From an uncultured Bdellovibrionales bacterium (GTDB lineage: Bacteria > Patescibacteriota > Minisyncoccia > Moranbacterales > UBA1568): a stretch of 64,000 bases of DNA. Position numbers and translations under genes: made by a program. The stretch covers positions 16,779 through 80,778 of the forward strand of contig CAYTED010000007.1 of NCBI GenBank assembly GCA_964436855.1, given 5' to 3'. The notes under the pieces are model-generated. The model did no database searches, was not told where the DNA came from, and worked only from the letters and a program-made list of their open reading frames with translations. The first letter of the stretch is position 1. The number at the start of each line of letters is the position of its first letter. Below are positions 13,258-60,304 of the stretch, piece by piece.

Positions 13258-13779
13258 CTATTCGGACCATTGCTTTCGGATCGTCTTCCGTCCCATTGGC
13301 AGAAGAAAAAAGAAAGAAACGGAAAGAATAAGCAAGATGACATTCGGATAAAATATGTACGGATGCCCCCAGCTCACGCCATCAAAAGTATAGCTTGAGA
13401 TCGGCCAAAGAAACGGGGTCGGGAAAAACTTGGCATCGTGAAAGGGAATATCGAGGAGAATATGAAATCCCCATGCTCCGAGTGGCCAAAACATTTTTTC
13501 CCGAAAATAATAAAAAAGAAAAACGACTCCCAAAAAAATAATGAGGCTGTGAGTGATATCGTAGGCAATATGAGTAAAAAATGGGATTTCCAGCGATTCC
13601 GGATGCCGCCCGGACGACCAATCGGGATGTGGGAAAATCCCGAGCCATGTCCCCACAATATACGGACCGAATGAAAAAACATCGGGCGCCATCCCAATAA
13701 ACAGCGACCAAAAAAACGCCTCTTTGTCCGATCGCCCAAAAAGCACCGATCCCCACAGGCCATGCGAGATAAAGTCCAT
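13258..13779 (-). CDS. Membrane-bound metal-dependent hydrolase-like protein (YdjM/DUF457-like)
   Basis: 173 aa, about 4 TM helices, conserved His/Asp in loops (HGLWG, HIAYDITH, HILLD). Confidence 0.55.
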   Translation of the reverse strand: MDFISHGLWGSVLFGRSDKEAFFWSLFIGMAPDVFSFGPYIVGTWLGIFPHPDWSSGRHPESLEIPFFTHIAYDITHSLIIFLGVVFLFYYFREKMFWPLGAWGFHILLDIPFHDAKFFPTPFLWPISSYTFDGVSWGHPYIFYPNVILLILSVSFFFLLPMGRKTIRKQWSE

Positions 13780-13788
13780 AGTTTTCGT

Positions 13789-14028
13789 TTATGAGCCCGG
13801 GCTGTGCCGCTGAAGATAGGAAACGATATCGCCTACAGTTTCGATATGGATCAAATCCTCGTATTTCGCCCTCATCCCGAATTCTTTCTCAAATCGAGTT
13901 ACTATGGAAAAAAGACAGATGGAATCATCCGCGAGATCTTCGATTTTATCATTTATGCCAATGGATGCTTCCGACCTCCCGGTTTCCTCGGCAATCAGTG
14001 CGATAACTTTTTCATTGAGTGTATCCAT
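13789..14028 (-). CDS. Acyl carrier protein
   Basis: 79 aa; ACP fold length; DLADDSI motif with Ser for 4'-phosphopantetheine attachment. Confidence 0.75.
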   Translation of the reverse strand: MDTLNEKVIALIAEETGRSEASIGINDKIEDLADDSICLFSIVTRFEKEFGMRAKYEDLIHIETVGDIVSYLQRHSPGS

Positions 14029-14621: not shown

Positions 14622-15287
14622 TTACGTCACATCGAACAATGATCGCATCTTCGAGGCGGTTATCTTTTCACCACCCCTCAATTCCAAAACCTCACCGAAA
14701 CGAAGACTATTGCTCATTCGAAACAGCGCTCGAAACGACCGCTCCAGGCCGTCAATCTGCACCACAACCACCTTTCGCCCCGGACCGACGAAAAATTCGA
14801 TTCCCCGCTTAAATTCACCCATTTGATTCCGGCAGATTTTTCCTTCCGGAAAGAGAAAGACCGTCGTTCTCTCATCAAGAAGCTCTTTCGTTCGCAGAAG
14901 CCCGAGCATCTTTTCCCGTGGCGTCGCCCCGATGTCGTACGAGCCAAGCAATCGGAGAGCAGGGCGCAGCCATTTTTTTTCCATAAAGTCATTGTCCGTC
15001 GGAAATCGAATCGGGAGAAGCTTGAGAAAGACCGGAAATGGCAGATACGCCAATACAACAAACGGGTCAATCTTCGATCGATGATTTGAGATGAGAAGCG
15101 ACCCTCGTTCAAGAGAATGAATATTTTCCGGAAGCGTCCGCTTTGCCAAATAAAAAAACCGGAGCGGTACTACCGAAATCAGATAGGCTCCAACTTGAGT
15201 GAGACTCAATAAGATATCCTTCGAGATTCTCTTTGTTTTTTTTCGCCATCTCATACACAACATGCTCTTTTTCCTTTTCTCTTCCAT
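14622..15287 (-). CDS. Lysophospholipid/1-acyl-glycerol-3-phosphate acyltransferase family protein (PlsC/OlsA-like)
   Basis: H(X)4D motif NHRSKIDP; FPEGKICRNQ (FPEG motif); N-terminal TM. Confidence 0.8.
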   Translation of the reverse strand: MEEKRKKSMLCMRWRKKTKRISKDILLSLTQVGAYLISVVPLRFFYLAKRTLPENIHSLERGSLLISNHRSKIDPFVVLAYLPFPVFLKLLPIRFPTDNDFMEKKWLRPALRLLGSYDIGATPREKMLGLLRTKELLDERTTVFLFPEGKICRNQMGEFKRGIEFFVGPGRKVVVVQIDGLERSFRALFRMSNSLRFGEVLELRGGEKITASKMRSLFDVT

Positions 15288-16051: not shown

Positions 16052-16792
16052 ATGTCGCTCAGCATGTTTGTCATCATCTTTGCGATTTTATTGATTCTTC
16101 TCTCTGAGGGAGTGAGGCTTTTTTTCCGGTGGCGTATTTCGCATCATATCGGCAATAAGGCTCGGCCTTTTGAGAGAAAGGACGCCTCACTTCCCTTTTC
16201 TCTGCTTATTCTCGGCGATAGCACGGCCTATGGAACGGGCGTCGACAATCCCACTCAATCTCTCGGAGGGAAAATCGGCGCATCTTTTCCTCATGTGGCG
16301 ATCTGGAATCGAGCGAAAAACGCCCTCTCTCTGAATGATCTCCCTTCAACTATAGATACCATTGCTTCTGAAAAAGGTCGTTTTGATGGCATCCTTATTG
16401 TTATTGGAGGGATCGACATGCTTCGTCTCACCCCTCCTTCGGTAGCGAGAAAAAAACTCCTCAGAACTCTTCGTATGGCAAAAAAGCTTTCTCCACACAT
16501 TGTCTTGGCACTTTCAAGCAATATTCGTTCGGCGACTTTTTTCCGCTTTCCTCTCAATCGAATTTTTGAATATGAACACCGTTCATTGGAAACCCTCTAC
16601 GGTCAAATAGCTCAGGAAGAACATATCGCGTATGTCTCCTTGTATGAACCAATTGATACTTGTCCATTCGCCAAAAATCCGGAAAAACTCTATGCTAATG
16701 ATGGGCTTCACCCAAATCACCTCGGATACGAAATTTGGTTCGAAAAAATAAAAGAACCACTGAAAAAGATTTTTCCTTCGAATATTTCATAA
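16052..16792 (+). CDS. SGNH/GDSL hydrolase (membrane-anchored)
   Basis: N-terminal TM; block I LILGDSTAYGTG; block V DGLHPNHLGY. Confidence 0.8.
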   Translation: MSLSMFVIIFAILLILLSEGVRLFFRWRISHHIGNKARPFERKDASLPFSLLILGDSTAYGTGVDNPTQSLGGKIGASFPHVAIWNRAKNALSLNDLPSTIDTIASEKGRFDGILIVIGGIDMLRLTPPSVARKKLLRTLRMAKKLSPHIVLALSSNIRSATFFRFPLNRIFEYEHRSLETLYGQIAQEEHIAYVSLYEPIDTCPFAKNPEKLYANDGLHPNHLGYEIWFEKIKEPLKKIFPSNIS

Positions 16793-16851
16793 ATGCCGTA
16801 TCACTCAGAAAAAATTTCTCCATTCCTCTTTTGTTCTTCACACTTCCTCGT

Positions 16852-17658
16852 ATGAGTTTTTTTGATATTTTACTCGAAAACTTTCTTTCTTTCGGAATTC
16901 TCCAGTGGATTGGATTCATCCTTATTTATTTTATTGTTGTTACCGTCCTCCGAATGATTTTTCTCCTCCTGATCAATCGGCATGTGTCGAGTCATGCCTT
17001 GCGCTATTCTCAGCCATTTCGAGGCGGGAAAAAGATTCTTGTTCTTGGTGATAGTATCGCCGTGGGAGCCGGTGCCGAAAAACCGGAACTCTCTATCGCC
17101 GGGAGACTCGGTCATGATCTCCCCACTTGCGAAATCCGAAACTTGGCCACTAACGGCGCACGTACTGTGGATGTTATTAAACAGCTGGAGCAAATAAAAA
17201 ATGAGACTTTTGACCTTATTATCATTTGCGTCGGAGGGAATGATATCTTTCAATTCACCCCTGTTCAGTCACTCCAAAAACCCCTCATATTGCTCACCGA
17301 TGAAGCCAATCGCTTGAGCGGAAATCAAACTATCTTCCTCGTCTATTCCAATATTGCTTTCGCACCTCTTTTCCCTGGATATTTTCGTCGTTTTTTGCAA
17401 AATCGAAACGAAAAAATCCTAAGTCTTTTTATGCACATTACCGGGGAGCGAGGAGCTTTTGCAATTGACTGCAGTCTCAGATGGAACCTCCACGAAACAA
17501 AAAAAGGCTCCCTGCGTTACTTTGCGGCAGATAAACTTCACCCAAGCGCGCTCGCGTATCAACAATGGTACAAAAAAATTTGGAAATATATTGCCAAAGA
17601 CAATCTCACTTGCGATATCGCCGATCGCCCCACCTACGCCCTTCAAGAAAAAAGCTAA
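16852..17658 (+). CDS. SGNH/GDSL hydrolase (membrane-anchored), paralog
   Basis: ILVLGDSIAVGAGA (GDS block); DKLHPSALAY (DxxH block). Start moved to ATG 16852 to avoid overlap with the upstream gene. Confidence 0.8.
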   Translation: MSFFDILLENFLSFGILQWIGFILIYFIVVTVLRMIFLLLINRHVSSHALRYSQPFRGGKKILVLGDSIAVGAGAEKPELSIAGRLGHDLPTCEIRNLATNGARTVDVIKQLEQIKNETFDLIIICVGGNDIFQFTPVQSLQKPLILLTDEANRLSGNQTIFLVYSNIAFAPLFPGYFRRFLQNRNEKILSLFMHITGERGAFAIDCSLRWNLHETKKGSLRYFAADKLHPSALAYQQWYKKIWKYIAKDNLTCDIADRPTYALQEKS

Positions 17659-17710: not shown

Positions 17711-18595
17711 TTACTTTTTCGATGCCTTTCCGATTTTTCGTAAAAGAAAGAGTGCGACTTTCAATTTGATACGCTGTAACCATCCGCGATTTCCGAATGG
17801 CAGGTACGGTTTTTTGAGTTTTCCAACATATGGGTCAAAATGCAGTGATCGAGGAACTCTCGGGACACCCTCTTTCTTGAGCAAGAGTTTTACCACAAAG
17901 GTAAGCACTAGTCCTGCGGCAAAAAATGTCCCGATGACAAGAGAGGCGCCGGATTTTCCTTTAAAATCGACCTTATCTGGATGAAAATACGTTCGTTGCA
18001 ATAAACTCGGTGTCAGTCCAATGCCAAATTTCATGGCCATCATTTCTTCCGACATACCGTCTTGTATATCGAAGTATTCATCAAATGACATCCCTTTCGG
18101 ATCAAACACAAGCGATGCTGAACCAAATCCGATCGGCCCCGCACTGACAACAAATATCCCTTGCTTCCTCGCCTCTCCATAAAAAATGCGCCGCACTTCC
18201 GGCGAAAAGAAATCAATTCCATCTACCGCAATATCCGCTCCCGAAAGAAACGCCTCTACATTCCCCTCATCAATGGCAGGAAACACCTCCACCCGAGCAT
18301 ACGGGTTGATATCGAGAATCATCTTCTTCAGTGTTTCGGCTTTTGATTTTCCGATTGACTGCATGGTCGCTCCTATTTGTCGATTGAAATTTGCGAGTTC
18401 AAACGTATCCGGATCGGCAATGCGAAATCCACCGATTCCAAGTCTCGCCAAACCGACGACCTCAATCCCGCCGACCCCGCCCATTCCGGCGACAACGACC
18501 GTCGACTGTCGAAGTTTTTCTTGTTCTTTTTTTGAAAGTAGTCCGATATTTCGTGAGAAAGCTTCTCCAAAAAATTGTTGCTCGTTTATTTCCAT
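17711..18595 (-). CDS. ThiF/MoeB/HesA-family E1-like adenylyltransferase
   Basis: VVVAGMGGVGG Rossmann motif; E1-like fold length; no Zn CxxC; C-terminal TM-like helix. Confidence 0.8.
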   Translation of the reverse strand: MEINEQQFFGEAFSRNIGLLSKKEQEKLRQSTVVVAGMGGVGGIEVVGLARLGIGGFRIADPDTFELANFNRQIGATMQSIGKSKAETLKKMILDINPYARVEVFPAIDEGNVEAFLSGADIAVDGIDFFSPEVRRIFYGEARKQGIFVVSAGPIGFGSASLVFDPKGMSFDEYFDIQDGMSEEMMAMKFGIGLTPSLLQRTYFHPDKVDFKGKSGASLVIGTFFAAGLVLTFVVKLLLKKEGVPRVPRSLHFDPYVGKLKKPYLPFGNRGWLQRIKLKVALFLLRKIGKASKK

Positions 18596-19656
18596 ATGAT
18601 TATTGGCGCCCTTCTTGGCGAAGCTGGTGGTTTATTTCCTTTTGGGTATCCGACACGAAAAAGAATAATCGGGGTTTTCCCTTGAGATCTCGGGAAAAGT
18701 TCTTCAAGCTTTTCGATAGCCTCTTTTTGCCATTTTTGTTCTTGAAAGGACATCCTTCCGACTTTGAGCAACTCATTTATTTTTGTCCCTGCAAGACCGT
18801 ACAATGGCTGCACCGCCACTCCATTTTTTGCAAAAGAGAGCCAAATTCGCTCCAGCGCTCGCCCTCCGTCAATATAGGTTTTCCGAGCCGAGAAAGGCCC
18901 TTTCATCACAAGAAAGCCGATCGCTGAAGAATGCCTGACGAGATTTCGGCTATTTGACGACGAAATAAATCCCATCACTCGATACAATGCAGAAATTCTC
19001 TTTACGAGAGAAAAAAAGAAAGGGAAAAAATATTTTTTCCATCCAAGCCCCATGTGTTCCGGGTGAATGCCATCCTTTTCTTCATCATGAAAACGAAAAG
19101 AGTTCCCAATATGACGCCTGAGCGATATATTTCCCCACAAAAAGTTTTCAAACGAAGCTGCCAGTGAAGCAAAAGACTGTTTTTCTTTTTCGTGAATCAG
19201 CCACAGAATTTCTCCCTGAAAGGACTTGGCCTCGGTATCTGCAGCGGCAAGTATATCCTCCGAAACCTTTTCGTTTAAATATGCCCGGCGATCCGTTGAT
19301 CGTTTTCGAAGAGCCCCAAAAAGGGGGTCTTCCGGAACTCGCTTTTCACTTATACGAGCGGTAAACATTTTATCTCCTGTTTTTCCGGGGACAATATCGA
19401 CGTGTATGCCTCTTTCCGTTGCTGCAATTTTGAGATTCTCCGCCAGCGCTCCAAATGATATCGCATCACCCGGATAGAGCGGATTAATACGGAATAAGAC
19501 CCTATCCTCATCATCCTTGTCGACAAAAAAAACGTCTATTTTCTCCCGAGATACCTCGAAAATCCACGGATGCAAATTATCCCCGGATGGCGCGGTATTC
19601 GCAATTCGTATGATTCTTTCGTATGCATGCTTCCACTCCATATATTCTTTGGACAA
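18586..19656 (-). CDS. SagB-type dehydrogenase (nitroreductase superfamily)
   Basis: TAPSGDNLHPW matches the P-S-A/G-G-x-L-x-P signature of SagB-type dehydrogenases; C-terminal nitroreductase-like half (GGRALERIWLSFAKNGVAVQPL). Overlaps thiF-like gene by 10 nt. Confidence 0.65.
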   Translation of the reverse strand: MSKEYMEWKHAYERIIRIANTAPSGDNLHPWIFEVSREKIDVFFVDKDDEDRVLFRINPLYPGDAISFGALAENLKIAATERGIHVDIVPGKTGDKMFTARISEKRVPEDPLFGALRKRSTDRRAYLNEKVSEDILAAADTEAKSFQGEILWLIHEKEKQSFASLAASFENFLWGNISLRRHIGNSFRFHDEEKDGIHPEHMGLGWKKYFFPFFFSLVKRISALYRVMGFISSSNSRNLVRHSSAIGFLVMKGPFSARKTYIDGGRALERIWLSFAKNGVAVQPLYGLAGTKINELLKVGRMSFQEQKWQKEAIEKLEELFPRSQGKTPIILFRVGYPKGNKPPASPRRAPIIIWK

Positions 19657-19713
19657 TACAATCAGTATACGATAAAATACTTCTTCTGAAAAAAATACTC
19701 TTTCAGACTCCCA

Positions 19714-21135
19714 TTATACCATCCGGAAATTTTTAAATTGCCATGGATCCGTTGCGTCGATATCTTCGGGAAACAGCCGGCTTCTTCCTTCAAGCGGTGT
19801 CCAATCGGCATATTCGCCAAAAACTTTTCCAAGATACGGTTTTGCTATTCGCAGAATTTCATCGTGCGGCATCTCGTCTGGTTCCATAATGCCGCATGTT
19901 GGATTTTTCATCGCCCATATGACCCCGGCAAGCACTCCAATGGCCACCTGAAGCGCGGTTGCCGAATTGTGTGGTGCAAGGCGCCTTGCTTCTTCAACCG
20001 AAAGGCGCGATCCATACCAATAAGTACCTTTTTTGTGCCCCATAAGAAGCACGCCAAGTTCATCCACGCCCGAAATTACCTCATCAGCAATGACGCGTTT
20101 TTCTTTTTGCAGCTCAAAATTATTTCCCTCAAATTCATGGACCGAAAGCACTGCATCATCGCAAGGATGATACGCATAATGCACCGTCGGCCGGTATGCC
20201 GGACATTCTCCCGATCCGATCGTAAGGTAATCCGCGATTGAAATCGATTCTCCATGCGTAATAAGAAATGCGTCCTGCGATCCGGCAAGTGGCACCCAGC
20301 TCCGAACGCGCGTCGACGCGCCCGGTCGACCGAGATATATCGCCGATCGACACCCAAAATCGAAACGTCGGCCATCATGCGGGAAGTGCTTCTCATGCGA
20401 ACCCCATCCGAGTTCGGATGGCTGACTCCCCTCACCTGTAAAACCATCAACCGACCAGGTATTTACAAATTCTCCATTGCGTTTTCGCGGATTTGAAATC
20501 TGTGTATCACGTTCAGCAATATGGATAACTTTTATCCCGATCTCCCGAGCAAGTATCGCCCATTCGGAACGCGTCTTTGGCTTTTCCCATTGATACCCCA
20601 CATCCTCGGCGATATGAAGAAGCGCTTTTTTCACAAAATGCGACACGAGCCCCGGATTCGCCCCATGCGTCAACACCGCAGTCGGTGCATTCTGGCCGTA
20701 TTGTTTCCGGAGCGAAAGCGCTGCTTCGCGTAACGCATAATTCGTTCGTTTTGCTTCCGGAATGGCACTGTCGGTATATCCACCCTCCCAGGGCTCAATC
20801 ACCGTATCAAGATACATCGCACCAACTTTCGCACCATAAGCAATAAGATCGATCGTCGAAACATCAACCGAGAGATTGACAATAAAATCCCCTCGGCTTA
20901 CATATTTTTTCAGTACAGAAAGATAATTGTCTTTTTTGAGCGGCTCAATATGAAACTCGATGCCATATTCTTCCGCTACATCCCTCCCTCGCTTGTCACT
21001 CGTTACAATAACGATTTGTTCTTTTGAGATATCAATATGCCGAAGAAGAAGCGGGAGCACCCCTTGTCCAACCGACCCGCATCCGATCATCACAATTTTT
21101 CCATCAAAACGAACTTCTTTTTTGTATCGCTGCAT
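19714..21135 (-). CDS. hss: Homospermidine synthase
   Basis: 473 aa. Block-by-block similarity to bacterial HSS as I recall it: IVMIGCGSVGQG, NLSVDVST, HIAERDTQ, VNTWSVDGF, TRVRSW, THGESISIADYLT, YRPTVHYAYHPCDDAVLSVHE, VDELGVLLMGH, LFPEDIDATDPWQFKNF. Confidence 0.9.
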   Translation of the reverse strand: MQRYKKEVRFDGKIVMIGCGSVGQGVLPLLLRHIDISKEQIVIVTSDKRGRDVAEEYGIEFHIEPLKKDNYLSVLKKYVSRGDFIVNLSVDVSTIDLIAYGAKVGAMYLDTVIEPWEGGYTDSAIPEAKRTNYALREAALSLRKQYGQNAPTAVLTHGANPGLVSHFVKKALLHIAEDVGYQWEKPKTRSEWAILAREIGIKVIHIAERDTQISNPRKRNGEFVNTWSVDGFTGEGSQPSELGWGSHEKHFPHDGRRFDFGCRSAIYLGRPGASTRVRSWVPLAGSQDAFLITHGESISIADYLTIGSGECPAYRPTVHYAYHPCDDAVLSVHEFEGNNFELQKEKRVIADEVISGVDELGVLLMGHKKGTYWYGSRLSVEEARRLAPHNSATALQVAIGVLAGVIWAMKNPTCGIMEPDEMPHDEILRIAKPYLGKVFGEYADWTPLEGRSRLFPEDIDATDPWQFKNFRMV

Positions 21136-21391
21136 TATTTTTCAGAATTATCGTATTATTTTCAACCAAGAAGAGCTTAGGAGTCTGCTGGAAAAGCTAT
21201 TTTCGTCACAAAATTTTGGAATTGCAGTAGAAAGTGAACTTTTCAACAGGCCCTTAAACTTCCCTCTGTGCAGCATACGGAAATTGAAAATTTTTGCAAG
21301 ACCACCCGCAAGCGACGTGCCAAGAATCCTGATTCATTCTATGATTCCTTCAGGGATTCTCTCACTCTTCACTCTTCACCTCTTCAAAAAT

Positions 21392-21772
21392 ATGAAAATT
21401 TCCCTCTTCGGAAATCAGGATCTCGATTTCGACAACCTGCCCCATCGGCTCCAATCTGGACTCGAACAAGCATTTCCAAATCTCTCTTTCATCGAAGAAG
21501 ATCCTCACGAACTCGACCTCCCGATCCGCGACCAAAATTGGATTATTATAGATACTGTCCGCGGACTCTCAAGGGTCACAATGCTTTCCGTCGACGATAT
21601 CGCGAAGCCAAATACCCGTGTAACGGCGCACGACTTCGATCTTACCGCTTTTCTCCTTTTTGCGAAAAAACTCGATCCGGCTCTTTCCGTTCGTATTATC
21701 GGGATCCCAATGGGCTACGACGAACAAAAAGCCCTCGAAGAAACCATTTTTCTTCTGAAATCTTTCGTGTAG
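21392..21772 (+). CDS. [NiFe] hydrogenase maturation endopeptidase (HycI/HyaD family)
   Basis: 126 aa from MKISLFGN...; pattern IIDTVRG...TAHDFDL...IIGIP typical of hydrogenase maturation proteases. ORF-track upstream extension discarded. Confidence 0.7.
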   Translation: MKISLFGNQDLDFDNLPHRLQSGLEQAFPNLSFIEEDPHELDLPIRDQNWIIIDTVRGLSRVTMLSVDDIAKPNTRVTAHDFDLTAFLLFAKKLDPALSVRIIGIPMGYDEQKALEETIFLLKSFV

Positions 21773-22305: not shown

Positions 22306-23625
22306 TCACATCTCTCTATCCTTTTCCCCCTCCTTCCACTCTACATCGAGAAAGTGCGACGCGCAGCTCATACACGGATCGTATGCACGGATGATTCGTT
22401 CGCAGCCGAGCGCGAGCGCTTCGCGGTCCATCGAAAGATTATCATTGATATAATCTTTCAAGTCGTACTCGATCGTAATCTGATTCTGCCCCGTCGGAAC
22501 GATAATTTCTCCTTCAACCACGATGCCGTTTTCATCGACTTCGAGTTTGTGGTAAAGCGTTCCTCGAGGTGCCTCGATCACTCCAACGCCAATCCCTGCT
22601 TTTTTCGGGAGTGCGATCGGTTTTTCTTCGACAAAATTTGCACTTTCAAGAAGATCAATTGCCTGATCCACCGAATGGAGAATGGCGATTGCTTGGGCAA
22701 GATTATTATGAAACACATCGTCCGATGGGAATTTTTCCAACGCATCTTTCGCATCACGTTTCGTGTTCGAATGAAGCGCGTCGCGATTGAGGTTCATTCG
22801 CGCGAGCGCGCCTACTCGGTACGGCTTCCCCTTGTACGCATATCCGCTCGCTTCCGAATACGGGATCACCACGTGTTCAAGGTGCTTTCGATAGTCCGCT
22901 TCTTCCGCGACCAATCCTTCCGAGTCGTGAATTTTTCCTTCGAGATACGAGAAATCCGGCGACACGAGCGCAAAATAATTCGACTCGCGCACGAATGAGA
23001 GCGGACTATTCAGAAATACTTGGATAAGCCGAAGCACCGCCGGACGAATCGATTTTAATTCTTCGATAATCGCGCCTTTCCCATTCATATCCGGCGTTTT
23101 TGCAAATCCTCCCGCCATCACGAATGGCGCGTGTACCGATCGTCCGCCCGTATAAATCGCCAAGTGATTCCCCGCTGCTTTTACCGCAAACGCGTCGTGC
23201 AACAAGTCATGTTGAATCGGATCATTCTCATCGAATTCAAGAAAAGAATCCTTCCCAAACAAATCCGGCATCGCGAAGATATACAAGTGAAGCGCGTGAT
23301 CGCGAATAATAAGCCCATGATAGAGAAGGTTTCGGAGCAGCATCGTCTGATCCGACGGCGTTACGCCAAGCGTCCGCTCCACCGCTTCGACGGAGGCGAG
23401 GATATGCGCATTGGAACACGTACCGCAGACACGCGCCAAAAGCTGCGGAATCGTCGATACCGGTTTCCCCTTGATCGCCTCGGTATAGAACCGCTTGAAT
23501 TCCTTGATGGAAAATTTTACGGACTCGACCTTGCCGTCTTTCAATTCAACATCGAGTCCGGCGGCGCCTTCGACCTTGGTGATTTCTTCGATCGAAAATC
23601 GGCTCATTTCGGATATTTGGTGCAT
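22306..23625 (-). CDS. [NiFe] hydrogenase large subunit (group 3-like, cytoplasmic)
   Basis: 439 aa; N-terminal RVCGTCS and C-terminal DPCMSCASH Ni-Fe ligand motifs, followed by a 15-aa C-terminal tail consistent with protease processing. Confidence 0.9.
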   Translation of the reverse strand: MHQISEMSRFSIEEITKVEGAAGLDVELKDGKVESVKFSIKEFKRFYTEAIKGKPVSTIPQLLARVCGTCSNAHILASVEAVERTLGVTPSDQTMLLRNLLYHGLIIRDHALHLYIFAMPDLFGKDSFLEFDENDPIQHDLLHDAFAVKAAGNHLAIYTGGRSVHAPFVMAGGFAKTPDMNGKGAIIEELKSIRPAVLRLIQVFLNSPLSFVRESNYFALVSPDFSYLEGKIHDSEGLVAEEADYRKHLEHVVIPYSEASGYAYKGKPYRVGALARMNLNRDALHSNTKRDAKDALEKFPSDDVFHNNLAQAIAILHSVDQAIDLLESANFVEEKPIALPKKAGIGVGVIEAPRGTLYHKLEVDENGIVVEGEIIVPTGQNQITIEYDLKDYINDNLSMDREALALGCERIIRAYDPCMSCASHFLDVEWKEGEKDREM

Positions 23626-24444: not shown

Positions 24445-25260
24445 CTATAACCGATCCTTTCCGAGAATCACAAGGATGTCCGCCTCCGGCTTCGGCTCAC
24501 CGTCCGGCAACGGCACAACTTCCGCGGCATACTCTGTCGCGAGCTTCTTCGCGAGTTCGGAAAATGCTCCGCTCACATCCACCACGATCGTTTTCTCATA
24601 CACCCCTTCGGCAATCACCTCCTCCTTCACCGACAATTCGCTCCCATATTTCACCGCAAGTTCTCCGTCGTATTGTTTCGCAAGACCTCGCTTTTCAGTG
24701 CCATTTGACACGACGATTTCGGCGATTTTGGAAACTTCTTCCGGAAGCGACGTATGTTCTTCCAAAACCTGCTCGTTTGTTGTACCGGCAACTTCTCCCG
24801 TTTCGGCGGGCGATAGACTTGGCGCTGTTTTACTATCGATATTTATAATCGTCATATCAACCACCTTCTTCGTACTCGGTCGATAGAGAAACGCTTTTCT
24901 TGCTTCGGGATACAAAAGCACCTTATCGCCGTTTTCCGCCTTTCGAAAAAAACTCTGTCCGGAAAGTTTTGTTTTATCGGTTACTGTCGCGATAGTCGGC
25001 GCCTCCCCTTCCGGAAGTTCGATAGACTTTCCAATCGTTTCCAGAATAATATTCGTATCGGACTTGGACGCTTCTGTCAGCACCTGCCGATACCGTGCAT
25101 AAAAATATCCGGACGAAACAACCGCGCCTCCCAAAAGAAGCAAGAAAAAAGACTTCCATACAATATTCACAGAAAATCCTCCCCGAATCTTCTCCGGAAC
25201 ATTTTCAACCATTTCAACCTCCTCTTTCTTTTTGAAAAACATAATCTTATATCTTTTCAA
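24445..25260 (-). CDS. Membrane-anchored LytR_C-domain protein
   Basis: N-terminal TM; ~45-aa middle domain; C-terminal LytR_C-like domain ending ADILVILGKD (consensus ends advvvvlGkD). One of four paralogs. Confidence 0.6.
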   Translation of the reverse strand: MKRYKIMFFKKKEEVEMVENVPEKIRGGFSVNIVWKSFFLLLLGGAVVSSGYFYARYRQVLTEASKSDTNIILETIGKSIELPEGEAPTIATVTDKTKLSGQSFFRKAENGDKVLLYPEARKAFLYRPSTKKVVDMTIINIDSKTAPSLSPAETGEVAGTTNEQVLEEHTSLPEEVSKIAEIVVSNGTEKRGLAKQYDGELAVKYGSELSVKEEVIAEGVYEKTIVVDVSGAFSELAKKLATEYAAEVVPLPDGEPKPEADILVILGKDRL

Positions 25261-25275
25261 TTACGTATATGCGAT

Positions 25276-26118
25276 TTATTGATTTCCGACAATCACCAAG
25301 ACGTCCGCATCGGGAGAAATTTCTCCTTCCGGAAGCGATGGCATCAGTGTTCCTCCGACTGTTTGCGCGATATTTTTCAGAATATCGTTCGCCATGTCGG
25401 AAAAGCCGATTACGAGAACTCCCTGATAATTGTCGTATGCCGCTTTTTCGCTCCTCCGAATGTTCCACTCCGGGTATGCTTGAGAAATCAAGTTCTCAAG
25501 CGAAGCGACGACGGAAGCGTCTTTGGCGCCGTTATAGATCGCAATGGTTGGCTTTTCTTTGTTTTCGGAAACACTTTTTTCCCCAAGAACCACTCCCTCG
25601 CTTGTCTGCGGTCGATCTTTCGCGATATCTTTCCCGGATTGAGCGGCGGCATTTTCCGTTTCGATATCAACTGTCGTTACATCGATTATTTTCCCTGTTG
25701 ATGGCCGATAGAGAACCGCCCGACCGCCATCGCCATAGAGAAGAATTTTATCACCATTCTCCGCACGCTTGAAAAAAGGCTGGTCATCGAGCTTATTTTT
25801 ATTTGTAACGGTGGCAACCGTAGGAATCCCGTTCGGCAATTCCATTATTCTACCGACCTTTTTCACGAGTTTTTCAAGTTCTTTCTCGTCCGAAACTTGT
25901 TTCGATTGATTCTGAAAATAAAAAATTGTTCCGATCGCAAGCAGAGACACAAACATAGCAAGTGCAACCAAACGCCCCTTCTTTTTTGAAAACGATCGAA
26001 AAGCAGTCGGCGGAAATTCGATAGGAGTCGCTTCCCGCAGAACATCGGATTGACCCAAAAGAGCGTCCTCTATCTTTTTTTTTCGACGAGAAGATTTTAT
26101 TTGTTTCTGTTCAGGCAT
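25276..26118 (-). CDS. Membrane-anchored LytR_C-domain protein (paralog)
   Basis: IAIYNGAKDASVVASLENLI...DADVLVIVGNQ; same architecture. Confidence 0.6.
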   Translation of the reverse strand: MPEQKQIKSSRRKKKIEDALLGQSDVLREATPIEFPPTAFRSFSKKKGRLVALAMFVSLLAIGTIFYFQNQSKQVSDEKELEKLVKKVGRIMELPNGIPTVATVTNKNKLDDQPFFKRAENGDKILLYGDGGRAVLYRPSTGKIIDVTTVDIETENAAAQSGKDIAKDRPQTSEGVVLGEKSVSENKEKPTIAIYNGAKDASVVASLENLISQAYPEWNIRRSEKAAYDNYQGVLVIGFSDMANDILKNIAQTVGGTLMPSLPEGEISPDADVLVIVGNQ

Positions 26119-26372
26119 AGTGTACGCCGCTAGAAAAAGAATATCGGAAGTATTCTCATGGAAATTCCGCTTACAAGAAACGCGAGCAGAAACGCCTGAT
26201 CAAAAAAGAGGAAGAAATTTCTATTTCCCGTCGATGCGGCCGCCGTGGAGAGGGCGATATCAAACGTCCCCGAACCATTGTCCCGAAGCTCAATATCCGC
26301 AAATGCCATACGTTATTTTCAGTTAAAACGCTTCTCTATGATACCACACCCCTTCAATCTCAAAGAAACTTT

Positions 26373-27137
26373 TCAATGCTCCGCGCTTCCAACGATCACC
26401 AGGATATCGGCATCTTCCGAGTTTATATTTTCTTCCGCGGGAAGCGTCGTAGCCGTCGCTCCAAGAAACGTCGAAAGATTTTTGACCGCCTTGTCGTTTT
26501 CTCCGGTAACGTCGACTACCATTGTATCGATATATGATGTGCTTGCTTTTTTCTCGAGTACGATATTGATCTTGGGAAAACGTTCTTCTAACGTCTTTTT
26601 TAGCGCATTCGCCCGTCCGTAAGAACCGTCAAATATCGCGATGCGTATCGATTTTGTAATCGCGCTTTCAAACGATTGAGCGACCTCTTGCGGATTCTCG
26701 GGCTGAAATTCCGGCGAACTTTCTTGATTGTTTACCGGCGTCACTTTCTTTTGAAACTCCCCCTCCGACGACGATACCGCGTTGATATTCACCGAAGAAA
26801 TATCTACCAACTTCCCCTTACTTGGACGATAAAGAAACGCTCGTCCCGCATTTCTATACACGAGCACCTGATCGCCGACTTCAGCTCGATCGAAAAAATT
26901 CTGTCCCGAAAACCGTTTCAAATCATCGATAGTAAAAAATAACGGGTCTTCTTCTGTCGGTATATCGACAATCTTTTTTATTTTTTCGGTCACGGTTCGG
27001 ATATTTCGCGCTTCGATTTCTTCCGGAAGCAATCGGTATTCCCTATAAAAATACCAGGCGCTCGCCGCCGCCGAAAAAAGAATGATTCCCTGCAAAAGCA
27101 GGCTTTTCCAAGCGCTTCCAAACATACCTTCTTTCAT
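26373..27137 (-). CDS. Membrane-anchored LytR_C-domain protein (paralog)
   Basis: IAIFDGSYGRANALKKTLEERFP...DADILVIVGSAEH. Confidence 0.6.
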   Translation of the reverse strand: MKEGMFGSAWKSLLLQGIILFSAAASAWYFYREYRLLPEEIEARNIRTVTEKIKKIVDIPTEEDPLFFTIDDLKRFSGQNFFDRAEVGDQVLVYRNAGRAFLYRPSKGKLVDISSVNINAVSSSEGEFQKKVTPVNNQESSPEFQPENPQEVAQSFESAITKSIRIAIFDGSYGRANALKKTLEERFPKINIVLEKKASTSYIDTMVVDVTGENDKAVKNLSTFLGATATTLPAEENINSEDADILVIVGSAEH

Positions 27138-27162
27138 AATTCAGATTTCTCTTTATCGGAAT

Positions 27163-29052
27163 TTATGCGGCGGTTCCATCGTCGGATCGACCCATATGCG
27201 TCCCATCTTCATAGGCTACCGCGTACATATCAGCGGTATCGTCATACCAGATAAACGAATACGATCCGTCCCCAACCCGCGAGGTTGTCCCGACGCGTTC
27301 ATCATCGGCAACACGAAAAATATCGATATTTACGGTACCTCCGCCCGAACCGGTAATAGATCCCGAGATACTGAAAGCAATGGAGTGGTATGTCATTAAA
27401 AAATCCAAGTGGTCAAACGTATTTGACGCATTCGCGGAAGCAAGCCTCCACCGACGTGATGTCTCGATATCGAGACGACTTAAAAGCGTATCTCCGGGCC
27501 ATCGGCTAAAAACCGAACGTGCGGTAAAGTACGCTTGTCGAACTCCAACTTCCGGATCGGTTGCCGATATATCGGTATAACAATTTTCCCATTTCAATCC
27601 CCCTTCTCCGGAAAGACGCTCCGTCTGCACGGTAACACCCGATGCGGTTCCCGTGCTTGTTGTCATATAAAAGTACCAACCGCCAATCGCGGTAAAAAAA
27701 TAATTCGTTTCCGGAATAACCGGTGCGGTAGCGGATATCGTTGAGCTGACCGCTGCTGCTGTTGTCGAGAAATTTTTCAAATTCCACCGAACCGTATGAT
27801 TGTGCGCTCCGACACCGTCGGTCGCTTTTCCGGAGGTATAGTTGATAATCCACAAACACGATACATTCAATCCCAGGTTTGTCGCGTCTGTCCGGTACGC
27901 ATCTGCCTGAAGCGTATTCGCTCCCCGGGAAAGTGTTGGCGTGAATGCTTCCATCAATCCCGCCCCACCGCCCATAATCGCGGCACCATCGGTGTATGTT
28001 TGAAAGGCTCCGGTACCAACCCGAAAATTTAATCCGGAAATCGCCGCCGTTTTATCGTAACAAACAAGCACCCCGGACTCCACTCCCGTAACCGTGTCCG
28101 GCTCTTCGATCCAAAGCGTTCGCTCGCCCCGCTGAAAATCCGCCGATGTCGTCCCTCCCATCGGAGAATCAAACTCCATTGGTAAAAGAAGAGAGTTCAG
28201 GATAGTGGTCGATGCGGACGGATCAAACTCGTAGGTTATAACCATATATACCTGCAAGTGCTCCGTAAAAGCCGACGACCCCCAAATATAAAACGAGTGC
28301 GAGGCATTCGTGGTAAAAGTCGGCTGATTCCACAAATAGGTAAACCAACGATCGGTAGCGAGTCCGGATTCGATACCGCCATTTGTATTGACGCCATTTG
28401 TGTCGATTTCCATCGAAATAGTCGGGTCGGTACCGGTGGTATCACTGTTCCCCTGAATGACAATATGCCAATCTCGAATCGTTTTTGATGACTCGGGAAG
28501 CCATGTATCAAGTGCCGGAATCGTCGCTATGGCCGTCCCCGGCTTCGTGGTCGCAAGCGCTCCGGACGGCGTATCAAGCGGCAAATAAACCGTCTTTATC
28601 TGTGTTGCCTGCGTATCGTCGTATTCATAGGTGATATACAGTCGTGCCGTAAGATCGCGCATCCCAAGCGTGGTACCGGTCGACTGATCCCAGTATGCCT
28701 GAATATCACAGGTCATATTTGTGCCAGACCAATTTGTAGAGAAGTGGGAAGTAAAATCAGCGGATACTTGATGTGAAACGTTCTCGCCGGAGTTTGCAAT
28801 ATCGTTCAGATTCGTATTCGTGGTATAGCCGGAAGCCCCAAGCTGCACCCCTATGCGCCATTCGGTAACCGTACCTCCGGTGTTCGTAATAATGTCGTTT
28901 GCCGTCATTACGCACAGAACACTCCGAAATGTAACCGTCCCACTCCCCTCCGGAATATATACCGTGAATTGGGTAAAGTTTGCCACCACTGCATCCGATG
29001 TCGAAGAAAGTGTCGGCGCTGAAAATTCGATAGTTTTGAGACGAGTAGCCAT
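27163..29052 (-). CDS. Large T/S/N/G-rich beta-type hypothetical protein (629 aa), no signal peptide
   Basis: Starts MATRLKTIEFSAPTLS with no N-terminal hydrophobic segment; paralog of 29814..31736 (shared blocks YITYEYDD(T/S)Q(A/T)TQIKTVY(L/I)PL, TIPALDT(W/E)LPE(S/T)SKT, ends RSD(D/N)GTA). Confidence 0.6.
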   Translation of the reverse strand: MATRLKTIEFSAPTLSSTSDAVVANFTQFTVYIPEGSGTVTFRSVLCVMTANDIITNTGGTVTEWRIGVQLGASGYTTNTNLNDIANSGENVSHQVSADFTSHFSTNWSGTNMTCDIQAYWDQSTGTTLGMRDLTARLYITYEYDDTQATQIKTVYLPLDTPSGALATTKPGTAIATIPALDTWLPESSKTIRDWHIVIQGNSDTTGTDPTISMEIDTNGVNTNGGIESGLATDRWFTYLWNQPTFTTNASHSFYIWGSSAFTEHLQVYMVITYEFDPSASTTILNSLLLPMEFDSPMGGTTSADFQRGERTLWIEEPDTVTGVESGVLVCYDKTAAISGLNFRVGTGAFQTYTDGAAIMGGGAGLMEAFTPTLSRGANTLQADAYRTDATNLGLNVSCLWIINYTSGKATDGVGAHNHTVRWNLKNFSTTAAAVSSTISATAPVIPETNYFFTAIGGWYFYMTTSTGTASGVTVQTERLSGEGGLKWENCYTDISATDPEVGVRQAYFTARSVFSRWPGDTLLSRLDIETSRRWRLASANASNTFDHLDFLMTYHSIAFSISGSITGSGGGTVNIDIFRVADDERVGTTSRVGDGSYSFIWYDDTADMYAVAYEDGTHMGRSDDGTAA

Positions 29053-29126
29053 TTATCGAATTATTAGTTAGAAAAGTATTCTCATTCTACCATAAAAAAC
29101 CGGGATATCTCCGGAAAATTTTTGTC

Positions 29127-29798
29127 TTATTTTTCTCCAACAATAACGAGAAGATCGGTTGACGGTATTTTTTCTCCTAAAGGAATCGTTTCTTCAAATA
29201 TTCCGTTCAGTCTTTCGGCCAAACGTTCTGAAATTTCACTCTGAAAATACGACGGATTGAAAATAAAAATCCCCCGGTAATCGGAATAATTGGCGTTTTC
29301 TCGAGCATTAATGGAGAGAAGAGGGAATTCTTCCTTTAAAATTCGTTCCACGTCCGCTACCCGTTCGGTATCGTGTGTCGCGATATACAACGAAAGCGTC
29401 AATGGGACCGTTGCGGCGGATTCATCATTCATTCCGGATAAAATTTCCGAATCGATACCCCCTCCCGACGGAAACGACGCGCTTTCGATAATTTTTCCGG
29501 TTTTCGGACGGAACAACAAAACCCACTTGTTCAATCGATACACCACCAATTGATCGCCATTGTCAACGCGATGAGGAAAAATTCTCGGATCAAGTTTTTT
29601 CACATCTTCAATCGTGAGCAAAATCGGCTCCTCATTTTTCGGAAGATCAACCAAGGCTCCGACAGACTCCTTGAATCGATCCGTTTCCTTGAGCTCGCCC
29701 CGTCGGTCGCGTTCCCATACTCGAAGTCCAAAAAAAACACTCCCTCCAATACAGGACAAAAGAATCGAAAAATAAAATATTTTTTGCCAGTACCTCAT
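29127..29798 (-). CDS. Membrane-anchored LytR_C-domain protein (paralog)
   Basis: C-terminal LTLSLYIATHDTERVADVERIL...STDLLVIVGEK. Confidence 0.6.
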   Translation of the reverse strand: MRYWQKIFYFSILLSCIGGSVFFGLRVWERDRRGELKETDRFKESVGALVDLPKNEEPILLTIEDVKKLDPRIFPHRVDNGDQLVVYRLNKWVLLFRPKTGKIIESASFPSGGGIDSEILSGMNDESAATVPLTLSLYIATHDTERVADVERILKEEFPLLSINARENANYSDYRGIFIFNPSYFQSEISERLAERLNGIFEETIPLGEKIPSTDLLVIVGEK

Positions 29799-29813
29799 GA
29801 AATACCGCTTCGC

Positions 29814-31736
29814 TTACGATGCCGTGCCATTGTCGGAACGCCCAATGAGTGTTGAACTCTCTCTCGCTTCCGTAAAGAGCGTTTCCGTATTATCGTACCA
29901 CGTAATGGAGTAACTCCCGTTTCCGGTACGAGAGGTTGTCGCCGCAAGCTCTTTATTGCTTGTACGCCACAAACTGATAGATACCGTCCCGCCGGATGAA
30001 CCGGTAATCTCACCCGAAACGGTGTACACAATGGAGTGGTAGGTCAACCAAAGATCCATATATATGAATCCCGTTCCGGCATTGGTATATGTCCACCACC
30101 AACGTCGCGTTCCTTCGGGATCAAGTGATCTCATAGGGTCGTTTGGGTACCTCTGAATATCATCGCGAACACCGGCAAAATGCTGATGCAACCCTTTTTC
30201 CGCGTCAGTATGTCCATTAATCGTATCAACCGTCAGCCATTCGCCTGCCGAATCGGTTTTTTCCATCATTAAAACAGCGCCGCCGAATGTTGTCGTGGTG
30301 TTTGTTACATGAGCGACATGGCATCCGAAACCGCTCAAGTAGTAGTCGGTGTCCGGAATACTGACCGCAAAGGCGGCTGTTTTTCGATTCGTCGCCGTCG
30401 CGCCATCAAATGTAAATCCGGCATTCCACTTGACCGTATGATTGGCGGCACCATATCCTTGTGTTGGCTTATCGGCGGTATAGTTCACAATCCAAAAACC
30501 AGAAATACCGGGACCGAAATCGGCCGTATCCGAACGATAGAAATCGGCCGTAAGATTGTTTTGACCACGATCAAGAGTAAAGGCGGAATCATTCCGAACC
30601 ATACAACCATTACCGCCGCAGAGAACGGCCGCCGCATCGGTATACGATACGAACGACCCTGTTCCCACGCGAAAATTCAATGTAGAAATAGCCGCAGCCT
30701 GTTCCCATACCGGGAAGAACGCTATCTGTTTGGTAGTAATGGTTCCCGGCTCTTCAATCCATAAGATCCGGCTTACTCGATCAAAATCCGTCGAAGCGGT
30801 ACCTCCCAATATGGATGCCTGCGAAACCATAAGCGTCGAGACAAAAACCCCGCTCGAAGCCGAAGCGTCAAACTCATATGTGACCACCATATACACCTGT
30901 TGGTGATTATGACGTGCCACGGATGCCCAAATATAAAATCCGTGTGTCGCGTTTGTTGTCATTCCAAGTCCCGCCGAAGATCCGCCCGAATCATAGTAAC
31001 GTGTCGTCCATACGAATTTTGCCCAATAATCCGATGTCGCGCCCATCTCAAGAGTCTGGCTCGTGTAAGCTGTGAGAGTATCAATCTGCATTGAAAGCGT
31101 GGAGTCAACCGTGGAAGCGGTATTGTTCACGTTACCCTGACAGACGATATACATACTTCGATACGTCTTCGACGTCTCGGGGAGCTCGGTATCGAGCGCG
31201 GGGATAGTATCGGTTGCCGTCCCCGGCTTCGCTGTTGCCAGTGTTCCAACCGGCGCATTGAGCGGGATGTAAACAGTTTTGATTTGCGTTGTCTGACTAT
31301 CGTCGTATTCGTAGGTAATGTATACCGTCGCCCCGACATTGTTCATAATAATACCCGATGCCGAAGCGTGGTCGACCAAAACAGAAACAGCGACCGTCTT
31401 GCTCGTGCCGGTTGTCCAGTTGGTCGTGAAGTGTGTCGTTGCATCCGCCGCATAAAAAAGCATTGTTTGTTCACCGGAGTTCGTTTCGAGGTTGGCATTG
31501 GTATACGATGTCGCCGTGGCACCACCCACCGACACATCGATACGCCGCGACGTATAGTTTCCAAGCGTCGTTGAGGCATCATTTACCTGAAGTTCCACGA
31601 CCGCTTTCTTGATCGTTACCGTTCCTGAAAATTCGGGAATATACGCGGTAATCACCGTCATCGCCGTAAGCGTATTGTCCGCAAGCGTATTGAGCTGCGG
31701 AATACCGTATTGAATGGTTTTCAGTCTTGTCGCCAT
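29814..31736 (-). CDS. Large T/S/N/G-rich beta-type hypothetical protein (640 aa), paralog, no signal peptide
   Basis: MATRLKTIQYGIPQLNT...; see 27163..29052. Confidence 0.6.
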   Translation of the reverse strand: MATRLKTIQYGIPQLNTLADNTLTAMTVITAYIPEFSGTVTIKKAVVELQVNDASTTLGNYTSRRIDVSVGGATATSYTNANLETNSGEQTMLFYAADATTHFTTNWTTGTSKTVAVSVLVDHASASGIIMNNVGATVYITYEYDDSQTTQIKTVYIPLNAPVGTLATAKPGTATDTIPALDTELPETSKTYRSMYIVCQGNVNNTASTVDSTLSMQIDTLTAYTSQTLEMGATSDYWAKFVWTTRYYDSGGSSAGLGMTTNATHGFYIWASVARHNHQQVYMVVTYEFDASASSGVFVSTLMVSQASILGGTASTDFDRVSRILWIEEPGTITTKQIAFFPVWEQAAAISTLNFRVGTGSFVSYTDAAAVLCGGNGCMVRNDSAFTLDRGQNNLTADFYRSDTADFGPGISGFWIVNYTADKPTQGYGAANHTVKWNAGFTFDGATATNRKTAAFAVSIPDTDYYLSGFGCHVAHVTNTTTTFGGAVLMMEKTDSAGEWLTVDTINGHTDAEKGLHQHFAGVRDDIQRYPNDPMRSLDPEGTRRWWWTYTNAGTGFIYMDLWLTYHSIVYTVSGEITGSSGGTVSISLWRTSNKELAATTSRTGNGSYSITWYDNTETLFTEARESSTLIGRSDNGTAS

Positions 31737-41847: not shown

Positions 41848-41920
41848 ACTTTTTTATTTTTTATTCCAATCTTTCTGTAATTATACTCCAGCTAAAAAAA
41901 CCGTCAAATATTTCCGCCTT

Positions 41921-42985: not shown

Positions 42986-43013
42986 ATCCGAACAAATGTA
43001 CATAAAAAAGAGA

Positions 43014-60301: not shown

Positions 60302-60304
60302 AAT

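Follow-up and report, generated by a model that had tools for sequence, protein, structure and literature searches.

A divergent FDO-ThiF gene pair downstream of homospermidine synthase, predicted to form the cyclase and desaturase of an oxazolone-type N-acyl amino acid lipid pathway

We analysed a 64-kb stretch of DNA (64,000 nucleotides, hereafter the window) from contig CAYTED010000007.1 of assembly GCA_964436855.1, deposited as an uncultured Bdellovibrionales bacterium and placed by GTDB in the Patescibacteriota, in which a homospermidine synthase gene (hss) is followed on the same strand by the gene of a nitroreductase-fold flavoenzyme of the type named FDO and by that of a ThiF-family adenylating enzyme. 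ThiF and FDO are probably the cyclase and desaturase of an oxazolone-synthetase-type pathway for N-acyl amino acid lipids, with hss a lineage-specific neighbour inserted upstream of them. The locus is best read as a divergent, extended variant of the known acyl-oxazolone/N-acyl-dehydroamino-acid pathway and not as a new kind of system.

The three open reading frames (ORFs) have the strand, order and positions given in a preliminary description of this DNA (19714-21135, 18586-19656 and 17711-18595, all on the minus strand), and they are not chance ORFs, since all three have strong homologues. The second encodes 356 amino acids if read from a TTG at 19656, whereas the gene callers of two public copies and a homologue of 64% identity place its start at the ATG at 19641 (351 amino acids). 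The hss-FDO gap is 72 nucleotides from the ATG and 57 from the TTG, so that the 57-nucleotide gap described before depends on the less favoured start, while the 10-nucleotide overlap described between FDO and ThiF stands, with the end of FDO (ATA TGG AAA TAA) lying over the start of ThiF (ATG GAA ATA A). This overlap suggests that the two genes are translationally coupled and that their products act as a pair. Two of the earlier identifications also held: the hss product matches solved homospermidine synthases over its full length (2PH5, E = 8.4e-159, residues 5-472; 4PLP, E = 1.3e-157), and the E1-like protein matches the ThiF domain (PF00899) with 127.5 bits. With its two Pfam domains, Sacchrp_dh_NADP (PF03435) and Sacchrp_dh_C (PF16653), hss can be taken on homology as a bona fide homospermidine synthase, whose product, sym-homospermidine, belongs to general polyamine metabolism.

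ThiF scored above cutoff solely on the NCBIfam model PRK08223 (331 against 266 bits); next came the fusion models, in their ThiF regions, with 295 bits on PRK14851 and 206 on PRK14852. Its motifs G37xG39G40xG42G43, D61, D63, N69, R72, Q73, K85, D125 and D128 were invariant in 25 homologues, and D128 was equated by motif position, not by direct alignment, with D217 of TrzS, the characterised ThiF-cyclase/FDO-desaturase Rv1355c, in which the D217A exchange leaves the enzyme without cyclase activity and R540A impairs desaturation (PMC12856293). The protein contains no cysteine, and therefore neither a Zn-binding CxxC nor a cysteine for acyl-persulfide chemistry. An AlphaFold2 model (predicted local distance difference test score, pLDDT, 93.9) has a ThiF/MoeB/PaaA/MccB/TcdA-like fold, with template modelling scores (TM) that reach 0.70/0.86 for E. 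coli ThiF and are similar for MoeB, and the functions of ThiF proteins cannot be told apart from the solved structures. The closest solved structure, in sequence as in fold, was 9EGB/9EGC, released in 2025 as "AclA from Tenacibaculum discolor in complex with substrate"; our literature search found no description of AclA function. Anti-phage Cap2/E1-E2 proteins were considered and rejected, as only the Rossmann part of about 100 residues matched them, at 47 bits or less (PADLOC/NCBIfam), and the score on 6A-MBL cap2_3 was 34 against a cutoff of 320.

FDO matched the Pfam Nitroreductase family marginally (23.9 bits) and the C-terminal halves of ThiF-FDO fusion models more strongly (PRK14851, 117.7 bits; the Rv1355c family, 85 bits, E = 4e-24). 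The top Foldseek match in PDB to its AlphaFold2 model (pLDDT 87) was 2YMV, the Mycobacterium smegmatis Acg protein MsAcg (TM 0.72/0.77), which is also the closest solved FDO homologue of TrzS (PMC12856293), whereas ordinary dimeric nitroreductases covered just half of the model and the 487-residue putative nitroreductase 3EO7 ranked 31st (TM 0.43/0.32). Because MsAcg was the sole outstanding PDB neighbour and dimeric nitroreductases covered only half, the protein is predicted to be a monomeric tandem-nitroreductase flavoenzyme with an Acg-like fold, of the group named FDO in PMC10404671. The motifs APSGDNxxPW and R114-S-T-D-R118 are conserved, and cysteine is absent here too. In neighbour-joining trees (200 bootstrap replicates, with capped distances for saturated pairs), the window FDO grouped with FDOs from ThiF/FeeM clusters in 198 of 200 replicates, and the Acg-type FDOs (P0195 and P0200, both above the family cutoff) formed their own clade in 191 of 200 and were never sister to the window clade. 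Membership of the Acg family itself (FDO-B; NF047509) was therefore rejected, given the score below cutoff, the overlap with a ThiF gene and the separate clade.

With 14,209 cluster representatives at E <= 1e-3, the FDO family is a large one; a single-sequence word-index search with FDO found only 4 proteins, and a profile built from locus-derived sequences was used instead. Among the best library matches were P0207 (1593 amino acids), P0208 (1062 amino acids) and P0209 (750 amino acids), which carry one or two FDO modules. One related locus (L003, 840-2210) encodes an FDO homologue of 44% identity and 456 amino acids, with an N-terminal extension of about 100 residues that is absent from the window FDO, followed by ThiF (68% identity) with no hss ahead.

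A third gene, overlooked in the preliminary description, lies about 1.7 kb from the ThiF stop on the opposite strand and encodes a FeeM-type N-acyl amino acid synthase (Pfam PF21926, E = 1.5e-28; PDB 2G0B, FeeM, E = 1.2e-12). Its product matches the N-terminal part (positions 31-194) of the NCBIfam model PRK14852, a 989-residue family curated as "hypothetical protein" that is a triple fusion of FeeM, ThiF and FDO, and the window proteins match successive parts of it. The FeeM-type synthase is the predicted acyltransferase partner of the ThiF/FDO pair.

We surveyed related loci from the ThiF side with a profile of 25 ThiF homologues, which gave 80 species-representative genome loci, 79 of them with ORFs scorable by hidden Markov models. 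FDO was fused to ThiF in 17 of the 79 (proteins of about 680 amino acids), lay next to it in 30 and farther off, but inside 10 kb, in 11, so that the two were fused or adjacent in 47/79; no FDO was found in the remaining 21, many of which are truncated contigs. A FeeM-type gene lay within 10 kb of ThiF in 50/79 loci, and the full triad of ThiF, FDO and FeeM was present in 43/79. The loci carried labels from Patescibacteria (Moraniibacteriota, Saccharibacteria), Planctomycetota, Desulfobacterota, Omnitrophota, Bdellovibrionales, Nitrospirota, Rokubacteria, Thioalkalivibrio and others, and the nearest relatives carry conflicting public labels, Moranbacteria/Patescibacteria in some records and Bdellovibrionales in others. 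The loci closest to the window also held PlsC-like, 4'-phosphopantetheinyl transferase (PPTase), acyl carrier protein (ACP) and paired GDSL genes; other recurrent neighbours were MacB-type ABC/HlyD exporters, MMPL, LolA-like, DUF1302 and exosortase/PEP-CTERM genes.

Variants of the arrangement were also seen. Five loci from Omnitrophota metagenome-assembled genomes (MAGs; L017, L018, L019, L020 and L083) encode a PRK08223-type ThiF, with a FeeM-type gene in 4/5 and with exosortase EpsH, a PEP-CTERM protein, MMPL, LolA-like and DUF1302 genes around it, and no FDO was detectable within 10 kb; they may represent a version with ThiF and acyltransferase and no desaturase. Two tandem FDO-ThiF pairs occur in a Pirellulales locus (L040, 8702-14505), and two FDO genes lie near one ThiF in Rokubacteria (L074, 10713-16115).

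This combination of genes has published relatives. A ThiF protein, a nitroreductase-fold FDO and an N-acyltransferase make up the oxazolone synthetase system, in which Pseudoalteromonas rubra OxzAB makes acyl-tyrazolones and phenazolones (de Rond et al., bioRxiv 10.1101/2020.06.11.147165), and TrzAS (Rv1356c/Rv1355c; M. tuberculosis/M. smegmatis) makes acyl-tryptazolones (Kleetz et al. 2025, PMC12856293). As is predicted for the window, OxzAB and TrzAS combine ThiF cyclase and FDO desaturase domains with an N-acyltransferase and use adenosine triphosphate (ATP) for cyclisation and flavin mononucleotide (FMN) for desaturation; in both, however, the domains are fused (about 700 amino acids), whereas the window has two separate genes, FDO first and ThiF second, joined by the 10-nucleotide overlap. 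In type, the window FDO and ThiF also stand nearer to PRK14851/PRK14852/PRK08223 than to Rv1355c. A 2025 review names OxzB as the sole ThiF-like enzyme with a known small-molecule substrate (PMC12596934).

The closest parallel in layout is TyzABC of M. tuberculosis (Rv2336, Rv2338c, Rv2337c), in which TyzA N-acylates tyrosine or phenylalanine (Grigg et al. 2023, PMC10404671), the ThiF homologue TyzB cyclises the product with ATP, and the FDO TyzC desaturates it with O2 (PMC10404671). As in the window, a separate FeeM/N-acyl homoserine lactone synthase-like acyltransferase accompanies a stand-alone ThiF cyclase and a stand-alone, monomeric, Acg-like FDO of about 350 amino acids, and the FDO and ThiF genes adjoin in one operon, with the acyltransferase gene nearby on the opposite strand. 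TyzA uses acyl-CoA, and TyzABC, unlike the window, lacks a dedicated ACP and PPTase and has no hss; no PlsC-like or GDSL genes are described for it.

In Stieleria (Planctomycetota), Thalassotalea and Massilia, genes of the same three families have been proposed to make N-acyl-dehydrotyrosines (PMC12479983), and many of the related loci found here come from Planctomycetota (Pirellulales), the phylum of Stieleria. These clusters, for stieleriacine, for thalassotalic acid and for kyonggic acid, share with the window a synthase of N-acyl amino acids (NasY), a ThiF protein and a nitroreductase (PMC12479983); the proposed donor is acyl-ACP, and the compounds isolated were not oxazolones but open-chain N-acyl-2,3-dehydrotyrosines (PMC12479983). 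For the window, an open-chain end product is just as possible. They differ from the window in having methyltransferases, and neither hss nor the PlsC/ACP/PPTase/GDSL set is reported for them; only the synthase gene has been tested genetically (PMC12479983). The environmental-DNA fee cluster that encodes FeeM (PDB 2G0B) resembles the window in its FeeM-family synthase and cluster-encoded ACP but lacks ThiF and FDO.

In acyloxyacyl aminolipid synthesis of the OlsB/OlsA and GlsB/GlsA type, an N-acyltransferase and a PlsC-family O-acyltransferase act in two steps. The pairing of an N-acyltransferase with a PlsC-like protein in the window resembles these systems, which lack ThiF and FDO.

The family assignments and the gene linkage were observed here, and the chemistry that follows is drawn from homology. 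The PPTase would prime the dedicated ACP, and the FeeM-type synthase would then acylate an amino acid at its alpha-amine to give an N-acyl amino acid, the acyl donor and the amino acid both being putative. By homology to OxzB, TyzB and TrzS, ThiF would adenylate the free carboxylate with ATP, upon which the amide oxygen would close a 5(4H)-oxazolone, and the FMN-dependent FDO would take two hydrogens across C-alpha/C-beta. The expected product is an unsaturated acyl-oxazolone, which would either persist or open to an N-acyl-2,3-dehydroamino acid. As a guess, the PlsC-like acyltransferase and the two anchored GDSL hydrolases probably tailor or move the lipid. We take the N-acyl amino acid as the shared intermediate because of the FeeM-type genes in 50 of the 79 loci and the PRK14852 triple fusion.

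Several observations weigh against this assignment of the pair, against the place given to hss, or against both. ThiF is weak on the Rv1355c model (64.5 bits, E = 6e-18, against a cutoff of 476), FDO does not reach the curated cutoff of either family model, Rv1355c (85 against 476 bits) or Acg (118.1 against 199 bits), and its identity to the ThiF-fused FDOs compared is low (22-29% by BLAST), so that orthology with TyzB, TyzC, OxzB or TrzS is not established. The FeeM gene is on the other strand, with two GDSL genes between it and the pair, and its family is described as ACP-dependent; the synthase in the window has its own ACP and PPTase, whereas OxzA, TyzA and TrzA use acyl-CoA. The window also encodes an anaerobic ribonucleotide reductase (NrdD) and a NiFe hydrogenase, whereas known FDOs use O2; O2 as the acceptor is questioned because of these two enzymes and because many related loci come from Desulfobacterota and Omnitrophota. 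The host is probably anaerobic, and an electron acceptor other than O2 may be needed. Finally, hss lies on the same strand as FDO, only 72 nucleotides off and with no terminator-like hairpin in this spacer, and the hss-FDO-ThiF arrangement is kept in a second locus (L002) although the FDO there is only 64% identical.

These last points also favour a functional role of hss, in which a primary amine of homospermidine would capture the acyl-adenylate made by ThiF, or the unsaturated azlactone, to give an N-acyl-(dehydro)aminoacyl-homospermidine, a polyamine-capped lipid. We consider this unlikely, though it is the best placed of the alternatives. Ring opening of azlactones by amines is standard chemistry and counts in its favour. 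So do the ready opening of acyl-oxazolones by nucleophiles (alcoholysis, hydrolysis; PMC12856293) and the precedent of acylated homospermidines in Myxococcus xanthus, which makes homospermidine lipids from its hsl cluster (PMC9548883); that cluster is not reported to contain ThiF or FDO genes.

The comparative evidence points the other way. hss adjoins FDO and ThiF in only two loci, L001, which is the same sequence in a read-archive assembly, and L002, a close relative in which the whole region is kept (HSS 87%, ThiF 77% and FDO 64% identity), so that the two do not count as independent cases. It was absent from all 80 species-representative ThiF loci and from L084-L088, and in 25 metagenome loci with HSS relatives (52-72% identity) the flanks contained ThiF, FDO or other cluster genes in none. 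Two of the hss-less loci, L086 and L087, are syntenic with the window (HypE/HypF, FDO at 46%, ThiF at 67%, two GDSL genes, FeeM, PlsC, PPTase, ACP and CsoR) and have HAD, GlpD-like and UbiA genes and one small divergent gene at the position of hss. A promoter-like spacer element (TTTTCA, 17 nucleotides, TATACT, at 19692-19664, located by a consensus scan and direct reading) is matched in the alignment by TTTTCA/TATACT in L002 and, upstream of FDO in L086, by CTTTCG/TAGACT, and is conserved with or without hss; read-through from hss into FDO-ThiF is possible. Our literature search found no publication linking homospermidine synthase with ThiF.

Most simply, these comparisons can be read as the insertion of hss upstream of an FDO-ThiF unit that already existed and kept its own promoter, and hss thus appears as a lineage-specific neighbour and not a conserved component of the system. 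A coupling of the pair with the synthesis of polyamines makes chemical sense but is unproven and unlikely, and the modified-polyamine pathway raised in the preliminary description finds no comparative support, as the linkage of hss with the pair is confined to the window's own lineage. That description had also considered that the arrangement might be unique to this genome and the two downstream genes ordinary members of ThiS/MoaD-activation and nitroreductase families: the arrangement is indeed essentially lineage-unique, but the genes are not of those ordinary kinds. Were the linkage functional, it would point to a new class of polyamine-conjugated lipids, which the comparative evidence makes unlikely; had hss been recruited in this way, biology would for the first time be seen to use an azlactone to acylate a polyamine, with a cationic lipid as product.

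The genes found upstream of FDO/ThiF in hss-less relatives (L084, 119-5043; L086/L087, 4913-8209) are FAD_binding_4, HAD, GlpD-like DAO/DAO_C and UbiA prenyltransferase genes, a set that looks like ether or isoprenoid lipid metabolism. HypF, HypE and HypD in the window (57074-61327) are 61-69% identical to L086 (1-3326), and lie about 36 kb from FDO in the window compared with about 5 kb in L086; the segment with hss, hydrogenase and secretion genes and ORFs of no known family is therefore variable between relatives.

Somewhat less probable still, the substrate of ThiF and FDO would not be an N-acyl amino acid but, for example, another carboxylate-bearing lipid or a metabolite that the products of the PlsC/ACP/GDSL genes make or scavenge, and the chemistry would not be that of an oxazolone. 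The low identity to ThiF-fused FDOs and the scores below cutoff noted above fit this, as does the clade nearest the window, which always has the PlsC-like, ACP, PPTase and two GDSL genes that are missing in characterised systems. Some loci have ThiF and FeeM with no detectable FDO and others have no FeeM, and FDOs have been proposed to desaturate various lipid species (PMC10404671). The frequency of the FeeM-type synthase beside ThiF, and its fusion to ThiF and FDO in PRK14852, argue instead for the N-acyl amino acid.

It is very improbable that the pair is a housekeeping ThiS/MoaD-activating adenylyltransferase and a generic nitroreductase that follow hss by chance. Public records do label ThiF homologues "molybdopterin/thiamine biosynthesis adenylyltransferase", and the Rossmann part scores 55-87 bits on ThiF/MoeB models. 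All ThiF/MoeB/MoeZ/TcdA models nevertheless fall far below their cutoffs (PRK08644, 86.9 against 159 bits; TIGR02356, 75.5 against 275; TIGR02355, 58.1 against 377), whereas PRK08223 is above its own; the missing cysteines and the fusion of FDO and ThiF in 17 loci also speak against it, and no ORF of 40-130 amino acids ending in Gly-Gly occurs anywhere in the window.

Weakest of all is the view that the pair is a remnant or variant of the azoline/azole peptide machinery of thiazole/oxazole-modified microcins (TOMMs), which is refuted at the family level: although the C-protein (E1-like) and B-protein (nitroreductase-fold FMN dehydrogenase) of that machinery belong to the same superfamilies and have analogous chemistry, cyclodehydration then dehydrogenation to a five-membered heterocycle, FDO had no match to TIGR03605 (SagB-type) at E <= 0.01 in NCBIfam and has the tandem Acg-type fold, and no ocin_ThiF_like or TOMM model was among the 19 NCBIfam families that ThiF matched at that threshold. 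TOMM substrates are ribosomal peptides, in contrast to the small N-acyl amino acid predicted here, for which ThiF itself is the predicted catalyst through carboxylate adenylation. The description of the pair as a SagB-type dehydrogenase with the E1 enzyme of a TOMM pathway is thus set aside in favour of homology to the ThiF cyclase and FDO desaturase of acyl-oxazolone pathways. Its remark that neither YcaO nor a precursor peptide is nearby holds: no YcaO match was found in a Pfam scan of the window that covered every ORF of at least 250 amino acids bar two antisense within scanned genes, and the only Cys/Ser/Thr-rich small ORF in 12-24 kb sits antisense inside hss, leaving no plausible precursor. 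Its broader idea, an adenylating enzyme and a flavin dehydrogenase that form a five-membered heterocycle on a small molecule independently of YcaO, is borne out as the predicted function.

The features of the locus are collected in Table 1.

Table 1. Features of the hss-FDO-ThiF locus and the adjoining lipid genes (positions in the window)
Feature	Position	Strand	Evidence
hss, homospermidine synthase, 473 amino acids	19714-21135	-	PDB 2PH5/4PLP matches, Pfam domains
hss-FDO intergenic region, 72 nucleotides	19642-19713	-	promoter-like element; without terminator-like hairpin
FDO-type flavoenzyme, 351 amino acids, predicted N-acyl amino acid/oxazolone C-alpha/C-beta desaturase	18586-19641	-	NCBIfam, AlphaFold2 fold, neighbour joining
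ThiF-family enzyme, 294 amino acids, predicted ATP-dependent N-acyl amino acid cyclase	17711-18595	-	PF00899, PRK08223, AlphaFold2 fold
GDSL/SGNH hydrolase 2, N-terminal membrane anchor, convergent with ThiF	16735-17658	+	Pfam Lipase_GDSL_2
GDSL/SGNH hydrolase 1, 242 amino acids, N-terminal membrane anchor	16064-16792	+	Pfam Lipase_GDSL_2
FeeM-type N-acyl amino acid synthase, 213 amino acids	15389-16030	+	Pfam PF21926, PDB 2G0B
PlsC-like acyltransferase, 210 amino acids, divergent from FeeM gene	14622-15254	-	Pfam PF01553
PPTase, 189 amino acids	14041-14610	-	Pfam ACPS PF01648
Dedicated ACP, 79 amino acids, DSI serine motif	13789-14028	-	PP-binding; NCBIfam ACP models
Conserved polytopic membrane protein, 173 amino acids, cluster membership tentative	13258-13779	-	conservation, hydrophobic segments

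Among the adjoining lipid genes, GDSL hydrolase 2 probably starts at the ATG at 16852 (about 268 amino acids); its N-terminal segment is hydrophobic, as is the N-terminus of GDSL hydrolase 1, which is a called gene in L001. Hydrolase 2 is kept beside ThiF in L002, L004, L007, L009, L011, L014, L015, L032 and L086, and hydrolase 1 occurs in the same loci. The PlsC-like protein matches NCBIfam acyl-[ACP]-phospholipid O-acyltransferase/AGPAT domains, and its gene is kept in L002, L004, L005, L007-L009, L014, L015, L032 and L086. The PPTase has weak NCBIfam PPTase matches and is kept in related loci, and the ACP matches NCBIfam ACP models (E = 3e-12) and is 65% identical to the ACP of L086. The membrane protein had no Pfam or NCBIfam match and has a counterpart of 76% identity in the corresponding place of L002.

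Upstream of hss lie a divergent gene of 143 amino acids (21341-21772, plus strand), which had no Pfam or NCBIfam match, and then the NiFe hydrogenase large subunit (22306-23625, minus strand). Compared as a 270-residue ORF (20960-21772), the divergent gene was unrelated to the 201-residue protein upstream of FDO in L086. Large minus-strand ORFs (271-641 amino acids) at 24445-31736, 34853-36778 and 40807-43045 had no Pfam match at 1e-3 or 1e-4, and these runs sit between hydrogenase genes, TatC and type II/IV secretion genes. Scans of the window for tRNAs and Rfam families found nothing.

A ThiF gene beside a nitroreductase-fold gene, with no YcaO, should thus be read as machinery for oxazolone or dehydro-N-acyl-amino-acid lipids, and not as an orphan TOMM fragment or as the thiamine or molybdopterin genes that the public labels of homologues suggest. 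The cited papers cover Pseudomonadota, Actinomycetota and Planctomycetota, and the triad occurs also in MAGs labelled Patescibacteria, Omnitrophota, Desulfobacterota, Bdellovibrionales and others. As many of the lineages added by the survey are likely anaerobes, the question arises which electron acceptor takes the place of O2. The survey further reveals an extended conserved cluster, in which the triad is joined by a dedicated ACP and a PPTase, by a PlsC-like acyltransferase and by a pair of membrane-anchored GDSL hydrolases.

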